DNA of 64,000 bases, taken from positions 32,001-96,000 of the IMG/VR virus record IMGVR_UViG_3300005748_000015, one strand, 5' to 3'. This document shows positions 27,442 through 34,502 of the stretch, in pieces. The notes beneath the pieces are model-generated. The model worked only from the letters and a program-made list of their open reading frames with translations. It was not told where the DNA came from and ran no database searches. Made by a program: the position numbers and the translations under genes. The first letter of the stretch is position 1, and each line of letters opens with the position of its first letter. The stretch comes from a virus.

Positions 27442-30400
27442 TTAAACAATATCTTCTACTATTAAATCTTCAATATTTGTGTGATAATTTTCTTTGTTCA
27501 TTCTTCTACGCATAAACAAAAATACTACAGAATTTTTACTCAAGTTATCTGGATATTTCAAAACACCCGTTTCATAATCAGGCCATACTACCAACTCATC
27601 TAAATATCCATCAACATCAACAATTAATTTAAGAGCTTTTTTCTCACCATTTTTATAAGAAAACTCTTTAGATTCAACAACATACGCTGCCACACAGAAT
27701 TCTATGATTTTATCGCTGTCAGGTTGATATTCAATATTTTTAATATTTTGATAGGCCTTGCCATTAATCAGTCTTGTTTCTTTGCCATAACTACTAATAG
27801 CAAAGCTTGAAACGCTAGTGTTTATAATTTTTACAGTTTTACAATTTTTTTTGATGATATCCGTCAGCTGTATTGGCATTGTTGGGAATATCGATTTTTT
27901 TAATATAAAATCTTTGACTCGATTCATAAAAATATATTTCTCATCAATCTTGCCTTCTTTAATGACATGTTTACAGCGTGAAGTTTTAGGATGCTCTTTT
28001 GCAGCCTGAATAAATTTATCAATGGGTTGATCCCAATAAACTTCATTTTCAGACTTTTTCATAATTTTATCTTTATATTTATAAACTTCTACAGCGTTTT
28101 CAAACTCTTGCATTTTTTCCATCAAGTTAGAGTCAGGTTTAAAAAGACTATCTAAAACACCTACATGTATTAGTTTAAGTGTTAAAGAATGGCCTACAGC
28201 TTTTTTATCTACAAAATCTTGTATATCCTTATAAGGTCTACCATTTGTAATCTTATTAGCTACTTTCTCTCCAAGCCCTTTTAATACCGATAGTTTACTT
28301 CTAATAGTGCCAGAATTATAATCAATCACCATCTCTTCTTTTGACAAGTTGATATCTGGTGGCGATAAAATACCCCTAACATGTGGCCATAATACTTCTG
28401 TGATTTCTTTCTCTTCTGCATTTGACAGTACAGCTGCCCACCATTCTAATGGATAGTGATGTTTTAAATATGCACAAGCATATGCAATCATGGCATAGGC
28501 AACAGCGTGTGATTTGTTAAAACCATATCTACCAAATGTCTCAATCATTCCCCAAACTTCTGTCGCTGTTTTTTCATCAACAATACCATTGTTAACAGAA
28601 GCTTCAATAAATTGAGGTTTAAGCTCTTGAATCATTCTTAGTTTTTTCTTACCAACGGCAATACGAACATCTTCGGCTTTCTCGTCGTCCCACCCTGTCA
28701 TTTCCTTGGTAAGCTTTGTAACCTGTTCTTGATAGACAAAAACACCCTGAGTCTCAGGTAAAAGTCTATTAAGGATTTCAATCTCACCCTTACTTCGACC
28801 GTGTACACGTTCGATATATTCTTCGGCCATATTACGACCTGTCTTTTCATCAACAAAGTCTAATGGCCCTGGTCTTACAAGCGATGTAACAACCGCACAT
28901 TCTTCGATTGTTTTGGGCTTCATTTCCATTACGAATGGTGTAACCGATGTAGTATTTAATTGAAATACGGTTTCAGTCTTGCCTTCGCCAAGCATTTGAA
29001 ATACTTCAGGCTCTTCGGGTAAATCCCATATATAACAATATCCACCTTTATGATTAAAATATCCTGATTCTAATTTTTTATCCGAATCTTGTCGGTGGTT
29101 AATATATTTTAATGCCAATTCAATATCATTAAGACACTTAACAACTAGAAAATCGTACTTGTTTAGACCAGCCGCCTCAACTTCTGATGGCTCATATTGA
29201 GTTACGTTTTCATTGTCACCAACTTTCATTAAAGGAATAGTCTCAGTCAAAGCTTTTTCTGACAACACAAATCCACAATTATGAACTAGAATTCCATTTA
29301 TATATCCAACATTTTCTAAGGGTTCGTTAAAATCCCATACAGGAGATTTTCCATAATCTTCTATGTACAGACATTTTATCTTATTTGGTTTATATATTGT
29401 CCATTTAGCATCTTCTATTATTTGTCTTAGTCTTTTAGACTTATAATCTTGATAAAAACCTACTAAATTTTCAAAAGCAATTTTGTTTGTAACATGCGGT
29501 ATTGAAAGTGTTGCTGTGGATTTACTTGTATAAACTCCATTGTAGTGTTCGGTTTCTTTGGGTTTAGAATAAGAACAACTCGTATTAATATCGTGAGAAT
29601 TTAACCAAATTGCAATGTCTGAAATTAATAACTTAGAAGTTAATTTAATTGCAACAGTAGGTCTTGTTGATAAACAATATCCATTAGCACTAAATAAACC
29701 GCACATAAAATCTCTTTGACACTTCAGGTTCCACTCCCAAAAAACACGAGGCAGTCTTTTACTATGTGTTTTTTGGTTAATTTTAAACTCTACTGGAAGG
29801 TTGTAGGTTTTATATTTATCTTTTCTTTTTTTATCAGATGTTATTTTATAACCTTTTTTATTTAACCAACTAAATATTCTTTTCTTTGCTGCATCATCTT
29901 TTTTTGGAGTAAAATAAAACTCAAACCTATCTTTATCCGATTTTATATATGCCCCATCATTTAAAAACCACCCCAAAGCAAAAGCCATATCACTTTCTAC
30001 TTCCCCATCTTCAGAAGTGTTAATAAATGGTTTATAAGATACAGTTTCGCCTTTTAAATCCTTAGCTTCAATTTCTTTATCTCCAACCATAAACCTATGA
30101 TCTGGTGTACATTGAATTGACACTCCATTATTCATAGATACAACTACAGTATCTTTTACTCCAGAATACCATGTTTTAATAGGTTTATTATCAGCAAATT
30201 CTGGGGCTAAATCTATAAAATCAACTTTACCATTGCTGTCCACTAAAGTACCAGATGCAAAACACGCATGTCGCCCATTTTGTCTTGATATACCCAGAGT
30301 GCGCTTGACAATTTCCCATTCGTCAGGTCTTTCTTTTGTGTATTTTAATAACTTGTAATCTTTTTCTAACAACCCTGGAATATGATTTCCATCACTATCT

Positions 30401-32070
30401 TCATATCCAAACACAAAATCTTGATCTGATATACCTTGCGGAGTAGCCTCAATTGATTTGGCAAGTTTTTCTATTTCATCCTCGACCGATCCATATTTAA
30501 ACCTATTAACATCTCTAATAGCTGACTTAAGTTTCATAAGAGTACGGGTAGATAACTGTGCCCATCTGTCTTTGTAATTGTTTTCAAAGAACCCATCAGA
30601 CCCTATAAGCAAATCTCTGTCAGGCAAATCAACGTCAACATCGGGTAAAGTACCCTTAAGAATACGTCCTAATGTTAGGAATCTTGAAAAATATAGACCG
30701 TATTTAATAGGGTCTACCTGTGTTATACCCATACAATACATGAGAAAAGAACCGCCAGCAGAACCCCTTGCAGGACCTACAACACGTCCTTGATCAGTAT
30801 AATAATTTAAAACTTTACTAATTGGAAAAAAATATGGCAGCAAATCAAGCTTGCCATTATTATGAATGACTTCTATTTCATGTCTCAGTCTTTTTACATG
30901 CTCAGGATTTTTTTCGTCAAATCTGCCGATACTTTTAATTAAATCCATTGTAGCTTTTAAATTATTGTCGTGCTCTTTTACAAGTTGATAGTCGTATTCA
31001 AGTTTAAAATCATCAAAATTACTAGCCCACTTGTAGCTATTTTCTGTTAGTGTTTGTATAAAATCTACATGGTAATGCTTACTAAAGTACACATTTACAT
31101 CGTTATTTGATCTCATATATAGTTTAGTATACATTCTACAGTCATCACCAAGCTTTAAATCTTGAACTAATTTATCGTCTTTGTTTGCAAAATATGAATA
31201 GTCATTTATAAGCAATAAAAACCCGTACTTTTTAGACAGCATGATCATAAAATCATTGTACTTTTTAAATATGTCGGTATCAATATCTTTAAAATCTTTA
31301 TGATTACAGGCAGATACAATATCTTTGTTTACATTATACCCTATTCCATTTACATATATTCTTTTGATAGATTTGTGCTTGCCATGTTTTTCAGCCACTT
31401 CTTCTAGTGATACCCTAAATGTTTTAGCGTAGCTAGTTTCTGCCATAAGCGAAGAATCAAGCGTTGCCGTTTCACCATTGACAAATGTAAATATACTAGA
31501 AGTTACCCATTTTTTATTTAACTCCATTGGCAAGATAGAACCGTATAAATTTTTGCCAAACATTTCATGGAGTTTTTTACAAATTTTTGCACCGACAACA
31601 GGCTCGTTAACAAGTAAGTTTTTAGTTACGATATCCTGTGGCCCACCTAAAGATACCGTAAATTCTTTTGTTGAAAAATCTTTTAGATCATTCCAGTTAA
31701 AAGTAGGATATTCTTGATCCAATATTTGGATTGTGTCTCTATTTTTTTCTGATATTTTTTTGACAAGAAATTGGTAAGCATTTTGTGTTTTGGCATGAAC
31801 AGTAATTGTATAGTATTTGATTTGTTCAGCTTTTGTACCTTTAATAATGTCACATTCTTTATCGACAAAATAAAGCTCACAGCCAGCAATAAATTTAAGA
31901 CCTTCCTGTTTAGCCTTACTATAGCCTTTCATGATATTGGTTAAATAACCGTTGTCGGTACAAACACAATATCCTGTATCTAGCTCTTTTGCTTTTTTAA
32001 TCATAGATTCTACTGTAGAACCAGTAAAGAAACTAGATAAATGTGTATTTGGTGATATAAAATTACGCAT
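27442..32070 (-). CDS. dnaE: DNA polymerase III alpha subunit (family C) with intein
   Basis: PHP-like N-terminus, GPARGSAGGS, PDVDVD, KYDFL, VFQL, VYQEQ, YGFNKSHA. Confidence 0.95.
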   Translation of the reverse strand: MRNFISPNTHLSSFFTGSTVESMIKKAKELDTGYCVCTDNGYLTNIMKGYSKAKQEGLKFIAGCELYFVDKECDIIKGTKAEQIKYYTITVHAKTQNAYQFLVKKISEKNRDTIQILDQEYPTFNWNDLKDFSTKEFTVSLGGPQDIVTKNLLVNEPVVGAKICKKLHEMFGKNLYGSILPMELNKKWVTSSIFTFVNGETATLDSSLMAETSYAKTFRVSLEEVAEKHGKHKSIKRIYVNGIGYNVNKDIVSACNHKDFKDIDTDIFKKYNDFMIMLSKKYGFLLLINDYSYFANKDDKLVQDLKLGDDCRMYTKLYMRSNNDVNVYFSKHYHVDFIQTLTENSYKWASNFDDFKLEYDYQLVKEHDNNLKATMDLIKSIGRFDEKNPEHVKRLRHEIEVIHNNGKLDLLPYFFPISKVLNYYTDQGRVVGPARGSAGGSFLMYCMGITQVDPIKYGLYFSRFLTLGRILKGTLPDVDVDLPDRDLLIGSDGFFENNYKDRWAQLSTRTLMKLKSAIRDVNRFKYGSVEDEIEKLAKSIEATPQGISDQDFVFGYEDSDGNHIPGLLEKDYKLLKYTKERPDEWEIVKRTLGISRQNGRHACFASGTLVDSNGKVDFIDLAPEFADNKPIKTWYSGVKDTVVVSMNNGVSIQCTPDHRFMVGDKEIEAKDLKGETVSYKPFINTSEDGEVESDMAFALGWFLNDGAYIKSDKDRFEFYFTPKKDDAAKKRIFSWLNKKGYKITSDKKRKDKYKTYNLPVEFKINQKTHSKRLPRVFWEWNLKCQRDFMCGLFSANGYCLSTRPTVAIKLTSKLLISDIAIWLNSHDINTSCSYSKPKETEHYNGVYTSKSTATLSIPHVTNKIAFENLVGFYQDYKSKRLRQIIEDAKWTIYKPNKIKCLYIEDYGKSPVWDFNEPLENVGYINGILVHNCGFVLSEKALTETIPLMKVGDNENVTQYEPSEVEAAGLNKYDFLVVKCLNDIELALKYINHRQDSDKKLESGYFNHKGGYCYIWDLPEEPEVFQMLGEGKTETVFQLNTTSVTPFVMEMKPKTIEECAVVTSLVRPGPLDFVDEKTGRNMAEEYIERVHGRSKGEIEILNRLLPETQGVFVYQEQVTKLTKEMTGWDDEKAEDVRIAVGKKKLRMIQELKPQFIEASVNNGIVDEKTATEVWGMIETFGRYGFNKSHAVAYAMIAYACAYLKHHYPLEWWAAVLSNAEEKEITEVLWPHVRGILSPPDINLSKEEMVIDYNSGTIRSKLSVLKGLGEKVANKITNGRPYKDIQDFVDKKAVGHSLTLKLIHVGVLDSLFKPDSNLMEKMQEFENAVEVYKYKDKIMKKSENEVYWDQPIDKFIQAAKEHPKTSRCKHVIKEGKIDEKYIFMNRVKDFILKKSIFPTMPIQLTDIIKKNCKTVKIINTSVSSFAISSYGKETRLINGKAYQNIKNIEYQPDSDKIIEFCVAAYVVESKEFSYKNGEKKALKLIVDVDGYLDELVVWPDYETGVLKYPDNLSKNSVVFLFMRRRMNKENYHTNIEDLIVEDIV
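29278..30264 (-). mobile_element. Intein (329 aa) with LAGLIDADG endonuclease in DnaE
   Basis: GRHA|CFASGT...TPDH...LGWFLNDG...GLFSANG...ILVHN|CGFV. Confidence 0.9.
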
Positions 32071-32288
32071 TATATACTAGATAAAATCCTTGCTTGCTTG
32101 TTTAAAGAATGTAATTTAGCTTCTATTTCTCTTATATCCATTGCTGCATCAGCAACACCGTGCCAATCTTTTTGATCAACTTTTAATAGTAAATAATCTG
32201 TCATACCACTCGCTTCTTTTTCTAATTTTTCTATATCATCAAATATATCCTGAACTATATGCAGAATATTTATTTCTTTACTATCCAT
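32070..32288 (-). CDS. Hypothetical phage protein
   Basis: DWHGVADAAMDIREIEA motif. Confidence 0.65.
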   Translation of the reverse strand: MDSKEINILHIVQDIFDDIEKLEKEASGMTDYLLLKVDQKDWHGVADAAMDIREIEAKLHSLNKQARILSSI

Positions 32289-32289
32289 A

Positions 32290-32487
32290 TTACGACACCT
32301 TTGTATTTATGTCAAAAAAATATTTTTTTAATTTTGCAGTTTTAATTTCAATAACGGAAAAGTCTTTTTTATAATACAATGCATATCTTACTTTTGCATC
32401 GCCATTTTCGTAAATATGAAAAACTCTAAGTATTTCACATCCTAAATCTGTTGTATCATTTGTATATCTGCCGCATAATTCTTGCAT
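32290..32487 (-). CDS. Hypothetical protein
   Basis: Coupled small ORF. Confidence 0.5.
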   Translation of the reverse strand: MQELCGRYTNDTTDLGCEILRVFHIYENGDAKVRYALYYKKDFSVIEIKTAKLKKYFFDINTKVS

Positions 32488-33134
32488 TACAACTCCACAA
32501 TTTTTAATAGATCATTATCTTGACCTACACTCATTAGGTTTGCTTGACTTGCTTTCTTCATAATATCACACAATCTAATGTATATTTCTTTTTGCATATG
32601 AACATCATCCTTGGCTCGGTGGGCAGTACCCTTAGGTAGCCCAAAGTATTCGATAAGACTACTAATGCTACCAACATTTCCTGGCAACATATCTAGCTCT
32701 TTAAGCCACGTAACTATTCCTGTAGTATCTAATGAGTTATGATTGATTCCACATTTTTTCATTTGACTTTCTGTAAGAAAACCTTGGATTTTCATAAAAG
32801 GAATATCAAAAGCTACAATGTTTTGCCCAAGGAATCTGTAGTGTTTTTGTTTTCTAGGAATTTTGTGGCGATTAAGCATTGCTATAAGCTTTTCACGACC
32901 TTCTGTATACGTTATTGTGTCTGGATTGTCAAGATGTTCTTCGGGATTTATATCGGTAACTTTAAAAGCTTCTTTGGTTCCGTGTATTTTACCCTCATCA
33001 TTTTTTAAATACAAATGTAGGTCTTCTAATAAATTCCAATCTTTATCCCAGATTGCAAAATAAGCTTCGTTAATGGTGTGGTTAACCATATCAAAGCCTC
33101 CTGTTTCTAGGTCAAAGCCTAAGTAATGTGCCAT
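32487..33134 (-). CDS. DEDDh 3'-5' exonuclease (DnaQ-like)
   Basis: FDLETGG, GQNIVAFDIPF, SLDT, AHRAKDD. Confidence 0.9.
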   Translation of the reverse strand: MAHYLGFDLETGGFDMVNHTINEAYFAIWDKDWNLLEDLHLYLKNDEGKIHGTKEAFKVTDINPEEHLDNPDTITYTEGREKLIAMLNRHKIPRKQKHYRFLGQNIVAFDIPFMKIQGFLTESQMKKCGINHNSLDTTGIVTWLKELDMLPGNVGSISSLIEYFGLPKGTAHRAKDDVHMQKEIYIRLCDIMKKASQANLMSVGQDNDLLKIVEL

Positions 33135-33325
33135 TATTTCACCTCGTAATCATCGTAATAAACTGGTTTTACTTCTGTTAATATTTCTATTCCTATAATC
33201 TGGCCGTCCTTATCAAAGTCTATACAAATACCATTACCCATATCTTTGGTTGTAAGTGGCTTCATTTTTTCTTTAAATTCTTTAACACTTAGATAACTGG
33301 CATAATTTCCTATTTTTAATTGCAT
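33134..33325 (-). CDS. DUF2283-like small protein
   Basis: ICIDFDKDGQIIGIEIL. Confidence 0.65.
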   Translation of the reverse strand: MQLKIGNYASYLSVKEFKEKMKPLTTKDMGNGICIDFDKDGQIIGIEILTEVKPVYYDDYEVK

Positions 33326-33342
33326 AATACCCCTATAAAAAA

Positions 33343-33431
33343 TGGTGGGGGCTTAGGTTGTACATTATTAGTCGCTAAACCGAATGCCCCATGCTACCAT
33401 ACGTTTTACGCATTTGTGTATGGATGCCCCC
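33343..33431 (-). ncRNA. Candidate 89-nt structured RNA with tRNA-like ends (GGGGGC...GCCCCC-A-CCA)
   Basis: GC-rich island; complementary ends plus CCA then T-run; internal CCATAC/GTATGG stem; promoter 8 nt upstream. Confidence 0.6.
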
Positions 33432-33439
33432 TTGTTTAT

Positions 33440-33450
33440 ATAGTATCATA
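33440..33450 (-). promoter_or_regulatory. Extended -10 promoter TATGATACTAT (with -35 TTGAGG at 17 nt)
   Basis: Repeated motif, placed to start transcription at the candidate RNA. Confidence 0.6.
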
Positions 33451-33480
33451 TAAAGAAAGCGACCTCAAGTAAAAGGTCGC
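33451..33480 (-). terminator. Rho-independent terminator
   Basis: GCGACCT-8nt-AGGTCGC perfect 7-bp stem followed by TTTCTTT on the minus strand. Confidence 0.75.
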
Positions 33481-33513
33481 CAAAAGAGATAAAATGTTTA
33501 ATTTATTTTTTAG

Positions 33514-33723
33514 CTAAACGCCAAGATTATTTTTTAATTTTTGAATTGCTGACTGATAAGTTTCTTCAACCTCTTCCTCAGTCATATTAAGAACTTTGGC
33601 AATTGTATGAATTTCAACGCCTTCAGGATATTTTTCTATAAGTTTGGATAGACTATTTTTGAATTTTGGGTAATCTATAAAATCTTCGTCATTTAATATT
33701 TTATGCTTTTTTTCGTTTTTCAT
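33514..33723 (-). CDS. Stand-alone sigma-70 region 4-like HTH protein
   Basis: GVEIHTIAKVLNMTEEEVEETYQSAIQKLKNNL; likely start MKNEKK with SD GGAG. Confidence 0.6.
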   Translation of the reverse strand: MKNEKKHKILNDEDFIDYPKFKNSLSKLIEKYPEGVEIHTIAKVLNMTEEEVEETYQSAIQKLKNNLGV

Positions 33724-34117
33724 GTGGAAACTCCAATACATTATTTTCAAATTGTAATCTATAAGCCCTTTCAAATCTTTCCATTTCTTCTTTGTGAAAC
33801 ATTTCTTTTCTTATTAGCATTTGCTCAAGTGGCTGAACTTTTTGCCTGTAATATTTTACTCTAGTTTCAACTAATTTTTTTTGCTGTTTTATTTTTTTAA
33901 ATTCATTTAAAGAAACAGCGGCTTTTGTGTTATGTAAAAAATCTATATTCTCTTCTATTTTTTTTAACATTATTTTATTATATTCAAGTTCGTTTTTAAA
34001 CCGTTCAAGGTCCTTGGAGATCATACAAAGTTCCAGCTCCATTCCTAAAATTTTACTTCTTAACTGTTTAACTTCCCTCGTTTCCTTCACCCTCGTCAAT
34101 CCTTCTTCTAAAGCCAC
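33701..34117 (-). CDS. Coiled-coil hypothetical protein
   Basis: Heptad-rich; start uncertain. Confidence 0.55.
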   Translation of the reverse strand: MALEEGLTRVKETREVKQLRSKILGMELELCMISKDLERFKNELEYNKIMLKKIEENIDFLHNTKAAVSLNEFKKIKQQKKLVETRVKYYRQKVQPLEQMLIRKEMFHKEEMERFERAYRLQFENNVLEFPHEKRKKA

Positions 34118-34502
34118 ACTTACAACTTAAAACTTTACTTTTTGTAAAGTTCATTACTGCATAACCTTCACCTTTGATAGTATCACATTCAGGACATTTT
34201 TTTAATATAATATTCTTGTTTTGTTCCATTTCTTGTTTTTTTCTACCTCTTTCGGTTTCTTTATATTTAAAACTATCTACCAATTCTATAATGTCTTCTA
34301 CTTTTTCATTCGACAATTTTTCATTAATATACTGGCAACTTTTATCAAAGGCTCTTTGTAAACTTGCCAAGTCTTGTTCTAATTTTTTAACTTTGTTTTT
34401 TTCTCTCTTTAAATCCGATTTAAGTTTTTTATTTGCATCTTTTATTCTTCCTTCACGATCTTCTGGATATACCATTTTCAACTTTCGGTTATTCTTTGCC
34501 AC
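34068..34502 (-). CDS. Coiled-coil protein with C-terminal zinc ribbon
   Basis: CPEC...CKCG; SD AAGGAG, GTG start. Confidence 0.65.
   Translation of the reverse strand: MAKNNRKLKMVYPEDREGRIKDANKKLKSDLKREKNKVKKLEQDLASLQRAFDKSCQYINEKLSNEKVEDIIELVDSFKYKETERGRKKQEMEQNKNIILKKCPECDTIKGEGYAVMNFTKSKVLSCKCGFRRRIDEGEGNEGS

Follow-up and report, generated by a model that had tools for sequence, protein, structure and literature searches.

Structured leaders situated directly after a promoter and small stable RNAs ending in CCA are the known kinds of phage RNA to which the element described here belongs. The element is an 89-nucleotide (nt) RNA encoded on the minus strand of a 64,000-nt stretch of viral DNA, called the window below, which covers positions 32,001 to 96,000 of the 128,193-base record IMGVR_UViG_3300005748_000015. 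The RNA, which precedes an operon with replication genes, was found to be a real, conserved, structured and non-coding element with three members in two lineages.

As phage-encoded, stable and co-transcribed small RNAs with tRNA-like ends and no known function, rnaC (species 1) and rnaD (species 2) of phage T4, both annotated in NC_000866, come close to the window RNA. Those two genes lie inside the T4 tRNA cluster, whereas tRNA genes are absent from the present phage record, and the T-arm-like GGTTCGAATCC of rnaC is missing from the window RNA. When family model R2 was run with filters off over the 5-kb T4 locus (NC_000866, 69500–74500), no match was obtained on either gene, the best match (E = 0.18) lying elsewhere in the locus. 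The put antitermination RNAs of HK022 are promoter-proximal, cis-acting phage leader RNAs. To these and to intrinsic-terminator attenuators the window RNA is similar in layout only, being a structured RNA right after an early promoter and before a long operon that needs read-through; unlike them, it is dispensable in relatives and has a non-canonical terminator geometry with a 4-nt ACCA spacer.

Pre-4.5S RNA, phage M3 RNA and the phage-derived C4 antisense RNA are named as natural non-tRNA substrates of RNase P in passages of PMC11143913, a figure legend of which also names the pairing of RCCA with RNase P RNA. As far as these passages describe them, they are, like the window RNA, short structured RNAs, several of them phage-encoded, with an end helix and an unpaired RCCA-type tail and without a cloverleaf. 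The window RNA differs in showing no sequence or model similarity to them (Rfam), its 5′ leader would be only 0–2 nt long, and it is a putative substrate. C4 is reportedly the antisense RNA of phages P1 and P7. The YrlA or bacterial Y RNAs (RF02553) are, according to passages of PMC4201824, tRNA-mimicking non-coding RNAs that also occur in phages. The window RNA, unlike these, has no Rfam match and no mimic of a T- or D-arm, and no Ro60 (TROVE) gene is present in its record.

For the surroundings of the RNA, the closest described systems are the composite promoter–terminator cassettes called PeSLs, which mediate shuffling in T4-type phages according to passages of two papers (PMC2839356, PMC4122927). 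As in those passages, a stem-loop terminator and an early-type promoter flank variable cargo here, and whole cassettes are replaced between close relatives. PeSLs explain shuffling and not an RNA, whereas the cargo here begins with a conserved structured RNA. Besides, the PeSL phages are T4-type and the present phage, with its DnaE-type polymerase, is not T4-like; the motif is likened by layout only.

Conservation and fold of the RNA

The original prediction, made from the letters of the DNA, had described a promoter-driven 89-nt RNA followed by six T's, and the stretch at 33431–33343, with T6 next to it at 33342–33337, was shown to match the predicted letters exactly. The further features that it had described were all present, namely an upstream terminator-like hairpin, the promoter motif TATGATACTAT with G1 of the RNA 8 nt downstream of it, and a 6-base-pair (bp) GGGGGC/GCCCCC stem followed by A-CCA (Table 1). 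The observation itself is thus confirmed. Per strand, the record contains just two copies each of GGGGGC and GCCCCC, and these counts give a rough estimate of about 0.003 for finding the two within 90 nt in pairing order. Since these 6-mers are rare and the stem is kept in relatives through changes on both sides, the end stem is beyond chance.

The exonuclease protein encoded downstream was used as an anchor to 5 viral and 13 metagenomic loci, in each of which the stretch from the helix-turn-helix (HTH) gene to the exonuclease gene was read. Two of the metagenomic relatives, L028 and L024, were found to carry a 100–101-nt homologue of the RNA behind the same promoter, beginning with AAGGGGAG and ending with CTCCCCACCA. 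Because MAFFT alone aligned the three RNAs badly, a covariance model was then built from the window sequence only, with helices P1 (nt 1–6/80–85), P2 (nt 9–14/30–35) and P3 (nt 51–54/73–76), and was searched against the window plus 16 loci (131,946 bases). This model detected L028 with 33 bits (E = 3e-6) and L024 with 17.8 bits (E = 0.043), the next matches having E values of at least 1.2.

In the three-sequence alignment, 97.7% of 44 cells were standard pairs. The predicted check for covariation gave four of 16 pairs changed on both sides, all of them Watson-Crick, in an alignment that was fitted to the structure and in which L024 and L028 share all four changes, so that there are only two independent lineages. 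Two of the changes were located in P1 (2 of its 6 pairs; G-C to A-U and C-G to G-C) and two in P2 (U-A to C-G and A-U to C-G). Controls in which the partners were slid by 1–3 columns showed 45–62% paired cells and 0–1 both-side changes, and 9 of 500 column shuffles reached the observed pairing values. RNAalifold, applied to the same model-fitted alignment, recovered P1 and P2 by its own prediction; it added an inner hairpin specific to L028 and L024 and placed the base of the third arm differently. P3 is tentative: two of its four pairs are invariant, one cell lacks a pair, and its interior could not be aligned in L024.

The best conserved part in the comparison of the window with L028 was the 3′ end, comprising CCTAA, the 3′ strand of P1, ACCA and the T's; approximately 20 of the last 22 nt were identical, and the 2 differences were the covarying P1 positions. 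The two helices have been kept through both-side changes while the interior diverged beyond ordinary alignment, which argues for selection on the fold.

The best fold of the 89-nt RNA is closed by the end-to-end stem, with a minimum free energy of −25.6 kcal/mol and a pair probability of 0.99, and P2 is one of several thermodynamic options in this copy (pair probability 0.03). Compared with shuffled sequences, L028 and L024 had z values of −2.29 (4/200) and −2.09 (5/200), respectively. The best fold of L028 has a 7-bp P1, one unpaired A and a 5-bp helix at the base of the third arm, and the acceptor-like helix of the window copy has 6 bp and an A-A mismatch; the terminal helix, G+1 and the 3′ RCCA tail, in the form A-CCA, are sequence features of all three members.

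Two mutually exclusive folds had also been predicted. Both exist on paper, a second GGGGCA being present at nt 42–47, but they are unbalanced, since the alternative folds (−22.2 and −20.7 kcal/mol) have pair probabilities of at most 0.006. The fold with internal GGGGC/GCCCC pairing (−22.2 kcal/mol) lies 3.4 kcal/mol above the best fold and is populated to less than 1% at equilibrium. The hairpin flush with the T-run, in which ATGGT..GGGGC pairs with GCCCC.C.ACCAT (−20.7 kcal/mol), falls short of the best fold by 4.9 kcal/mol and is populated to less than 0.1%.

The Rfam and ARAGORN checks against known RNA classes that the original prediction had proposed gave no known family or tRNA, in agreement with its statement that a cloverleaf and a signal recognition particle (SRP) motif are missing. 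ARAGORN detected no tRNA or transfer-messenger RNA (tmRNA) genes in the window or in the 128-kb record, and no Rfam match was found in the window at gathering thresholds. At E ≤10, six weak Rfam matches were obtained on 33200–33600, none of them on the RNA body and none to a tRNA, tmRNA, SRP RNA, Y RNA (RF02553) or riboswitch, and L024 and L028 gave no match at gathering thresholds and only a chance match to IsrR (E = 0.3). Thus, neither program found a tRNA (RF00005) cloverleaf with D, anticodon and T arms or a tmRNA, and the third pair is G-C in all members, not G3:U70; no SRP or 4.5S domain IV match was found at gathering thresholds or at E ≤10, and no curated riboswitch or leader model matched the window, L024 or L028. 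Nor was the geometry that of a canonical intrinsic terminator, whose stem ends 0–2 nt before the U-tract: P1 ends 4 nt before T6, and a terminator scan of 32500–34500 did not list P1 with T6. The RNA is none of tRNA, tmRNA, SRP RNA or any Rfam family. In the record, which is 80% complete by the estimate of the collection, no CCA-adding enzyme (PF01743), Ro60 (PF05731) or RtcB (PF01139) was found; in 14 reference genomes used as controls, these were found in 10, 2, and 10, respectively.

No complement to the RNA of 13 nt or longer was found in the phage genome that could represent an antisense target, and one of 12 nt is at chance level. Only 4–6 A-U-rich pairs were seen by eye between the P3 loop and the start-codon region. 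A 12-codon open reading frame (ORF) with an ATG start is present in the window RNA; it was rejected as a leader peptide because the RNAs of L028 and L024 contain no ATG at all. On the opposite strand, a TTG-started ORF of 50 amino acids (aa) runs antisense across the RNA (33320–33472, plus strand), and this ORF is most likely spurious, since it has no counterpart of at least 40 aa in L024 or L028, in which no ORF of that size overlaps the RNA.

Searches for further members were negative. The RNA is single-copy in the 128-kb record, a look-up by sequence returned it from its own genome alone, and model R2 detected only this copy when run on the whole records of L002, L004, L005, L018, and the phage itself (1/5). 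The frame GGGGGC...GCCCCCACCATTTT was found in eight stretches of viral contigs, none of them a further family member: three were tRNA-Leu genes, four were copies of one unrelated stretch that is not a tRNA according to ARAGORN, and one was another non-tRNA. Nine stretches of viral contigs with AAGGGG...CCTAANNCCCCACCA likewise included no family member, eight being copies of one unrelated stretch without an upstream promoter motif and the ninth (L032) having no T-run or promoter motif and not being listed by models R1 and R2. Neither the promoter followed by AAGGGG (96 stretches in viral contigs, 0 with a closing helix) nor CCTAANNCCCCACCATT (70 stretches in viral contigs, 0 with a matching 5′ strand) led to a member, and the 18-nt hairpin common to L024 and L028 was found in no stretch of the viral contigs. 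Among 185,579 prokaryote genomes, 33 stretches with AAGGGG...CCTAANNCCCCACCA were found and no family member; they contained one chance complementary pair of letters, and the best R2 score was 21 bits. A blastn search of 601 bases against 50,697 phage records gave no match, and of the 227 pattern stretches obtained in a protein-anchored search based on an alignment of 13 HTH proteins, none was confirmed. The RNA family is tiny and uncatalogued, with three members found.

Promoter, operon and the variable slot

The upstream hairpin was the sole terminator-like site in the scan of 32500–34500 (mean of shuffles 1.0), and an equivalent hairpin was present in L002, L004, L020, L025, and L028. Together with the promoter it forms a stem-loop-plus-promoter composite ahead of the slot. 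The promoter core TGATA[CT]TAT recurs in the 128-kb record, TGATACTAT being found seven times (six on the gene strand) and TATGATA[CT]TAT seven times, and several copies of the core lie directly after hairpin-plus-T-run sites. At the matching position, the core was present in the loci of 13 relatives, including TAATAT or TATTAT variants. The 6-nt spacer and the AAGG that follows were identical in the window, L024, L028, L020, and L025. Judged from this spacing, the transcript probably starts at one of the two A's before G1.

The DUF2283, exonuclease, two small-ORF and DnaE genes follow each other without intergenic gaps. A motif search of the record found no further strong-promoter-motif site downstream on the operon strand, and a consensus scan detected one weak promoter-like site inside the DUF2283 gene (33181–33152, 9/12 matches). 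The terminator upstream, the lack of another strong motif, and the fact that the promoter drives the exonuclease gene directly in relatives without the RNA identify the RNA as the 5′ leader of the replication operon.

Terminator and promoter were conserved across the loci and the content after the promoter differed. In L018, L027, and L029 there is no RNA, and the promoter leads straight into the ribosome-binding site of the exonuclease gene. The slot holds a short hairpin in L025, an unrelated element of approximately 125 nt followed by DUF2283 in L002, L004, L023, and L031, and another unrelated RNA of approximately 110 nt in L020 (1730–1850). ORFs occupying the slot were found to encode an M15-type peptidase in L005 (2511–2927), a 99-aa protein without an assigned family in L022 (2199–2498), and a protein with a weak 2OG-Fe(II)-oxygenase-like match below the Pfam cut-off in L026 (1673–2098). 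In L028 and L024, the homologue of the window RNA precedes an ORF of 88 aa with a hydrophobic, membrane-type N-terminus (L028: 1832–2098), and L024 contains a further structured element of approximately 130 nt inserted exactly where L028 has T7 (L024: 2120–2225). At least four unrelated RNAs, or none, are thus held by the slot across relatives.

The RNA is thus found with different ORFs, and DUF2283 likewise with different RNAs. The proposed tie of the RNA to DUF2283 therefore did not hold: the ORF behind the RNA of L028 and L024 is a different one, and the DUF2283 genes of L002, L004, L023, and L031 follow an unrelated RNA. The proposed control of the exonuclease and dnaE genes has to be modified as well: since L018, L027, and L029 have no RNA between promoter and exonuclease, the RNA is an accessory cassette and not a fixed controller of the replication genes.

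Further sequencing runs were compared as assembled Logan contigs. The contig of run X1 covered all 901 bases with 16 differences, 13 of which were listed, all of these outside 33279–33624. In the contig of run X2, 33125 is joined to 33437 and 996 other letters replace the RNA and DUF2283, with three differences on each aligned flank piece; one break lies directly after the −10 hexamer and the other 9 nt into the exonuclease gene. In the RNA run X15 and the DNA run X3, the match stops at 33518 and other letters follow, which points to different slot content. The replacement in X2, together with the varying slot content of the relatives, shows that the RNA is the head of a swappable cassette. 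A repeated terminator-plus-promoter composite bounding variable cargo that is swapped between close relatives, the layout of PeSL-type cassettes, is what was found here.

Some of the other slot contents have features of their own. The element of approximately 125 nt (L002: 2655–2790) contains a terminator-like end hairpin of its own, GGTGG.../...CCACC, followed by a second promoter-like site TATGATATTAT and then DUF2283; no Rfam match was found for it, and its fold had a z value of −1.38. The slot RNA of L020 starts with AAGGTAGA and ends with TTCACCC, T5 and ATATAGGAG; its 3′ end and the ribosome-binding region resemble those of the window RNA, and it is not detected by models R1 and R2. The insert of L024 has a long closing stem GGTGGC...GCCACC, no Rfam match beyond the chance match to IsrR (E = 0.3), and lies behind ACTATAAAGTAAGG, letters similar to those of the 3′ part of the slot promoter. 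From these letters, the insert looks as if it had arrived as a promoter-proximal cassette of its own.

The gene directly upstream of the slot encodes a 69-aa HTH protein (33514–33723, minus strand, gene end at 33514) with a weak Pfam match to HTH_69 below the cut-off. In public metagenomes, 44 homologues of near-identical length were found, with 59–99% identity. The best tblastn match of the 1542-aa DnaE among 50,697 phage records was in Myxococcus phage Mx1 (34.7% identity over 78% of the query), and this DnaE-type polymerase is without a close cultured relative. DNA nearly identical to the locus was found in marine, seawater, marine-sediment, and sponge metagenome runs. The host phage belongs to an uncultured group of large marine phages with a DnaE-type polymerase.

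Table 1. Features of the RNA locus and the operon behind it (window coordinates).
Feature	Position	Strand	Remarks
Intrinsic-terminator-like hairpin	33458..33481	-	9 pairs, 5 G-C, loop 6, T-rich tail; ends the upstream 69-aa HTH gene
Promoter motif TATGATACTAT	33440..33450	-	Read as extended -10 (TG-n-TACTAT)
Probable transcription start AA	33432..33433	-	7-8 nt past -10 hexamer; placed from spacing
Swappable cassette (RNA + DUF2283)	33126..33436	-	Extent replaced in near-identical strain (run X2 contig)
Structured RNA element (RNA-A)	33343..33431	-	Homologues L028:1713-1813, L024:2007-2106
P1 5′ strand GGGGGC, nt 1-6	33426..33431	-	Partner 33347-33352, pair probability 0.99
P2 5′ strand CCATAC, nt 9-14	33418..33423	-	Partner 33397-33402; 2 pairs changed on both sides in relatives
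P2 3′ strand GTATGG, nt 30-35	33397..33402	-	With next T = TGGT, complementary to ACCA tail
Internal GGGGC, nt 42-46	33386..33390	-	Can replace 5′ end as partner of GCCCC
Third arm P3, tentative base GGTT/AACC or GGG/CCT	33356..33381	-	Carries conserved GCGACT..ATAA..GT.ACA
P1 3′ strand GCCCCC, nt 80-85	33347..33352	-	
Single-stranded ACCA tail	33343..33346	-	Identical in 3/3 family members
T6 run, 4 nt past P1	33337..33342	-	T7 in L028; gone in L024
Shine-Dalgarno GGGG of DUF2283	33330..33333	-	
DUF2283 gene, 63 aa, protein part of cassette	33134..33325 (ATG at 33325)	-	Pfam DUF2283, E = 5.2e-8; 33134..33336 with the Shine-Dalgarno region
Gap-free downstream operon	27442..33134	-	Exonuclease, two small ORFs, DnaE
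DEDDh exonuclease	32487..33134	-	
DnaE-type polymerase, 1542 aa	27442..32070	-	

Operon leader or mimic of a tRNA end

We tentatively favour, at a level somewhat short of probable, a reading in which the cassette supplies a leader RNA whose leaky, non-canonical terminator or processing site gives rise, in addition, to a stable RNA of approximately 90 nt. Transcription would start at or next to G1. The G-C-rich closing helix of the multi-branched fold joins the very 5′ end to nt 80–85 and would thereby bury it, which should protect the RNA; an unpaired ACCA and U6 follow. P1 and the U-run 4 nt away may then act as a leaky terminator of non-canonical form or as an AU-rich cleavage site. A fraction of the transcripts, terminated or cleaved in the T-run, would give a stable RNA of approximately 90–95 nt with a tRNA-like end, and the remaining transcripts would read through, so that the accessory gene and the replication genes are expressed. 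Partial termination or cutting, stability of the RNA and a regulatory effect are all inferred, beyond the statement that the RNA is a leader.

Since the operon has no other site with the strong promoter motif, transcription must read through the T-run, and the T-run of an operon leader cannot be an efficient constitutive terminator. The spacing of 4 nt between P1 and the T-run agrees with this. Among the 669 runs of at least T6 in the record, four follow a G-C-rich 6-mer with a perfect complement at most 130 nt upstream, with spacings of 0, 0, 5, and, for the T6 of the RNA, 4 nt.

Several points weigh against this leader with a leaky end. T6 runs are common in this A+T-rich genome, as their number shows, and P1 is a poor terminator on account of the ACCA spacer, while the hairpin flush with the T-run is the weaker fold by 4.9 kcal/mol; termination at the T-run may be negligible. 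As L024 keeps the RNA and has lost the U-run, the latter is not obligatory. The fold of the window copy alone shows no unusual stability, with z = −1.34 and 21 of 200 shuffles equalling it, and the covariation rests on a single divergence because there are only two independent lineages. Finally, a purely cis-acting role does not explain why the single-stranded ACCA and CCTAA are the most highly conserved parts.

In a second reading, the main rival, the RNA would act in trans by imitating a tRNA 3′ end and would be set free from the operon transcript as tRNAs are from mixed tRNA–mRNA transcripts. We consider it unlikely, if still a serious candidate, and it is not fully exclusive of the leader. 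For release, RNase P could cleave at G1, after which the AU-rich trailer would be cut and the 3′ end trimmed as far as ACCA, and the target would be a host factor for tRNA 3′ ends, e.g., the CCA-adding enzyme, a processing enzyme or a defence toxin directed at the acceptor end. Read-through into the operon is compatible with a free RNA, for it is established that tRNAs are excised from transcripts which they share with mRNAs. The G-C-rich helix of 6 bp (7 bp in L028), G+1 and the unpaired A-CCA are found in all three members, two pairs of the helix change, and the single-stranded tail together with the junction before P1 is the most conserved part of the RNA. The acceptor/T-arm stack of a tRNA consists of 12 pairs; in L028, the 7-bp P1 and the 5-bp helix lie one nt apart and would likewise give 12 stacked pairs, similar to an acceptor/T-arm. 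Besides, the RNA occurs alongside varying accessory ORFs in a hypervariable, promoter-proximal slot, which, as a generalisation that we infer, is a typical site of counter-defence cargo. Non-tRNA RNAs of similar shape are natural substrates of RNase P in the passages mentioned above (PMC11143913), and toxins acting on tRNA acceptor ends do exist, as shown by MenT (passages of PMC10435456 and PMC11541572) and by Cas13 HEPN (passages of bioRxiv 10.64898/2025.12.03.690598).

The RNA, however, has no T-arm, D-arm or anticodon arm to mimic the body of a tRNA, and its G-C third pair in all members excludes a G3:U70. The 128-kb record, at 80% completeness, holds no tRNA genes, CCA-adding enzyme, Ro60 or RtcB, and the RNA has no protein gene as a constant neighbour. 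Since the conserved TGGT on the 3′ side of P2 is complementary to ACCA, the tail could be conserved for internal pairing instead.

In its most specific form, this reading would make the RNA a free-standing acceptor-end decoy of approximately 89 nt that soaks up or misdirects a host factor acting on tRNA 3′ ends, which we regard as doubtful. An acceptor-end-modifying or -cleaving defence toxin, or an enzyme of tRNA-end processing or surveillance, would be its target, a proposal to which the same doubt attaches. No less doubtful is that phages trade the RNA in a promoter-proximal counter-defence cassette that also encodes small accessory proteins.

Remaining alternatives and meaning of the element

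The original prediction had offered, besides a tRNA mimic, a switchable attenuator. In such a two-state element, a hairpin of ATGGT...GGGGC with GCCCC.C.ACCAT flush with the U-run would terminate transcription, the 5′ strands of P1 and P2 would compete for the same partners and thereby permit read-through, and a trans factor on the 5′ 14 nt would decide between the two. The complementary segments do exist, the outer TGGT/ACCA pairing is possible in all three members, the operon needs read-through, and L024, without the U-run, has also lost the internal G-run complementary to the 3′ strand of P1. The outer pairs, however, are invariant and hence show no covariation, and the inner pairs of the flush hairpin are not kept in the alignment with L028 and L024, where they fail to form. 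The terminator-flush fold has −20.7 as against −25.6 kcal/mol and a pair probability of at most 0.001. P2 would form first during transcription, which would make read-through the default with no evident trigger, and relatives do without any such element. We consider a two-state attenuator improbable; as the flush hairpin is weak, does not vary in its outer pairs and fails to hold in its inner ones in relatives, a leaky terminator or cleavage site is favoured over a balanced switch. The interpretation given in the original prediction is partly supported.

It is quite improbable that the RNA is a functionless by-product of cassette shuffling, i.e., a recombination remnant at terminator–promoter motifs that is kept because it is recent. 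The slot is highly plastic, the family is tiny with no further member in any scan, and for T4-type phages the passages cited (PMC2839356, PMC4122927) report modular shuffling by way of composite promoter–terminator motifs. A mere remnant, however, would not be expected to keep two helices through both-side changes while its interior diverged beyond ordinary alignment, and the near-identical strain of run X1 keeps the whole stretch, none of the 13 listed among its 16 differences falling within 33279–33624.

A degenerate tRNA gene is very improbable. The obvious candidate would be the tRNA-Leu type, since the ends GGGGGC...GCCCCCACCA are common with phage tRNA-Leu, and the three genuine tRNA-Leu genes (85–87 nt) among the eight stretches found in viral contigs have the same first 6 and last 10 nt. 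ARAGORN found nothing, however, Rfam at E ≤10 gave no tRNA match on the RNA, and its interior has no T-loop or anticodon arm; the homologues of L028 and L024, at 100–101 nt, are equally un-tRNA-like and yet conserve helices that are not those of a tRNA, and no intermediate relatives grading into a recognisable tRNA were found. Scarcely credible is an element acting as DNA, e.g., a promoter-primed replication origin or a protein-binding inverted repeat, to which the position just upstream of replication genes, the G-cluster right after the promoter and the Watson-Crick nature of all P1 and P2 pairs, which would hold in DNA too, might point, because close relatives with the same replication genes lack the RNA stretch, the third arm of L028 uses a G-U pair that would be a C-A mismatch on the other strand, and the element starts at the promoter and is co-oriented with it.

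If the RNA is only a leaky leader, it would be a modest addition to the known 5′ leaders of phages. The comparison of the slots shows that structured RNAs, besides small ORFs, are exchanged as cargo at conserved terminator–promoter motifs. If the fold and the ACCA end are functional, the RNA would be a minimal RNA possessing only the end of a tRNA, without T-arm or anticodon arm and in a record without tRNA genes, and it would offer a clean test of what an acceptor helix with CCA alone can be to a cell: a signal for processing, a stabiliser or a decoy.

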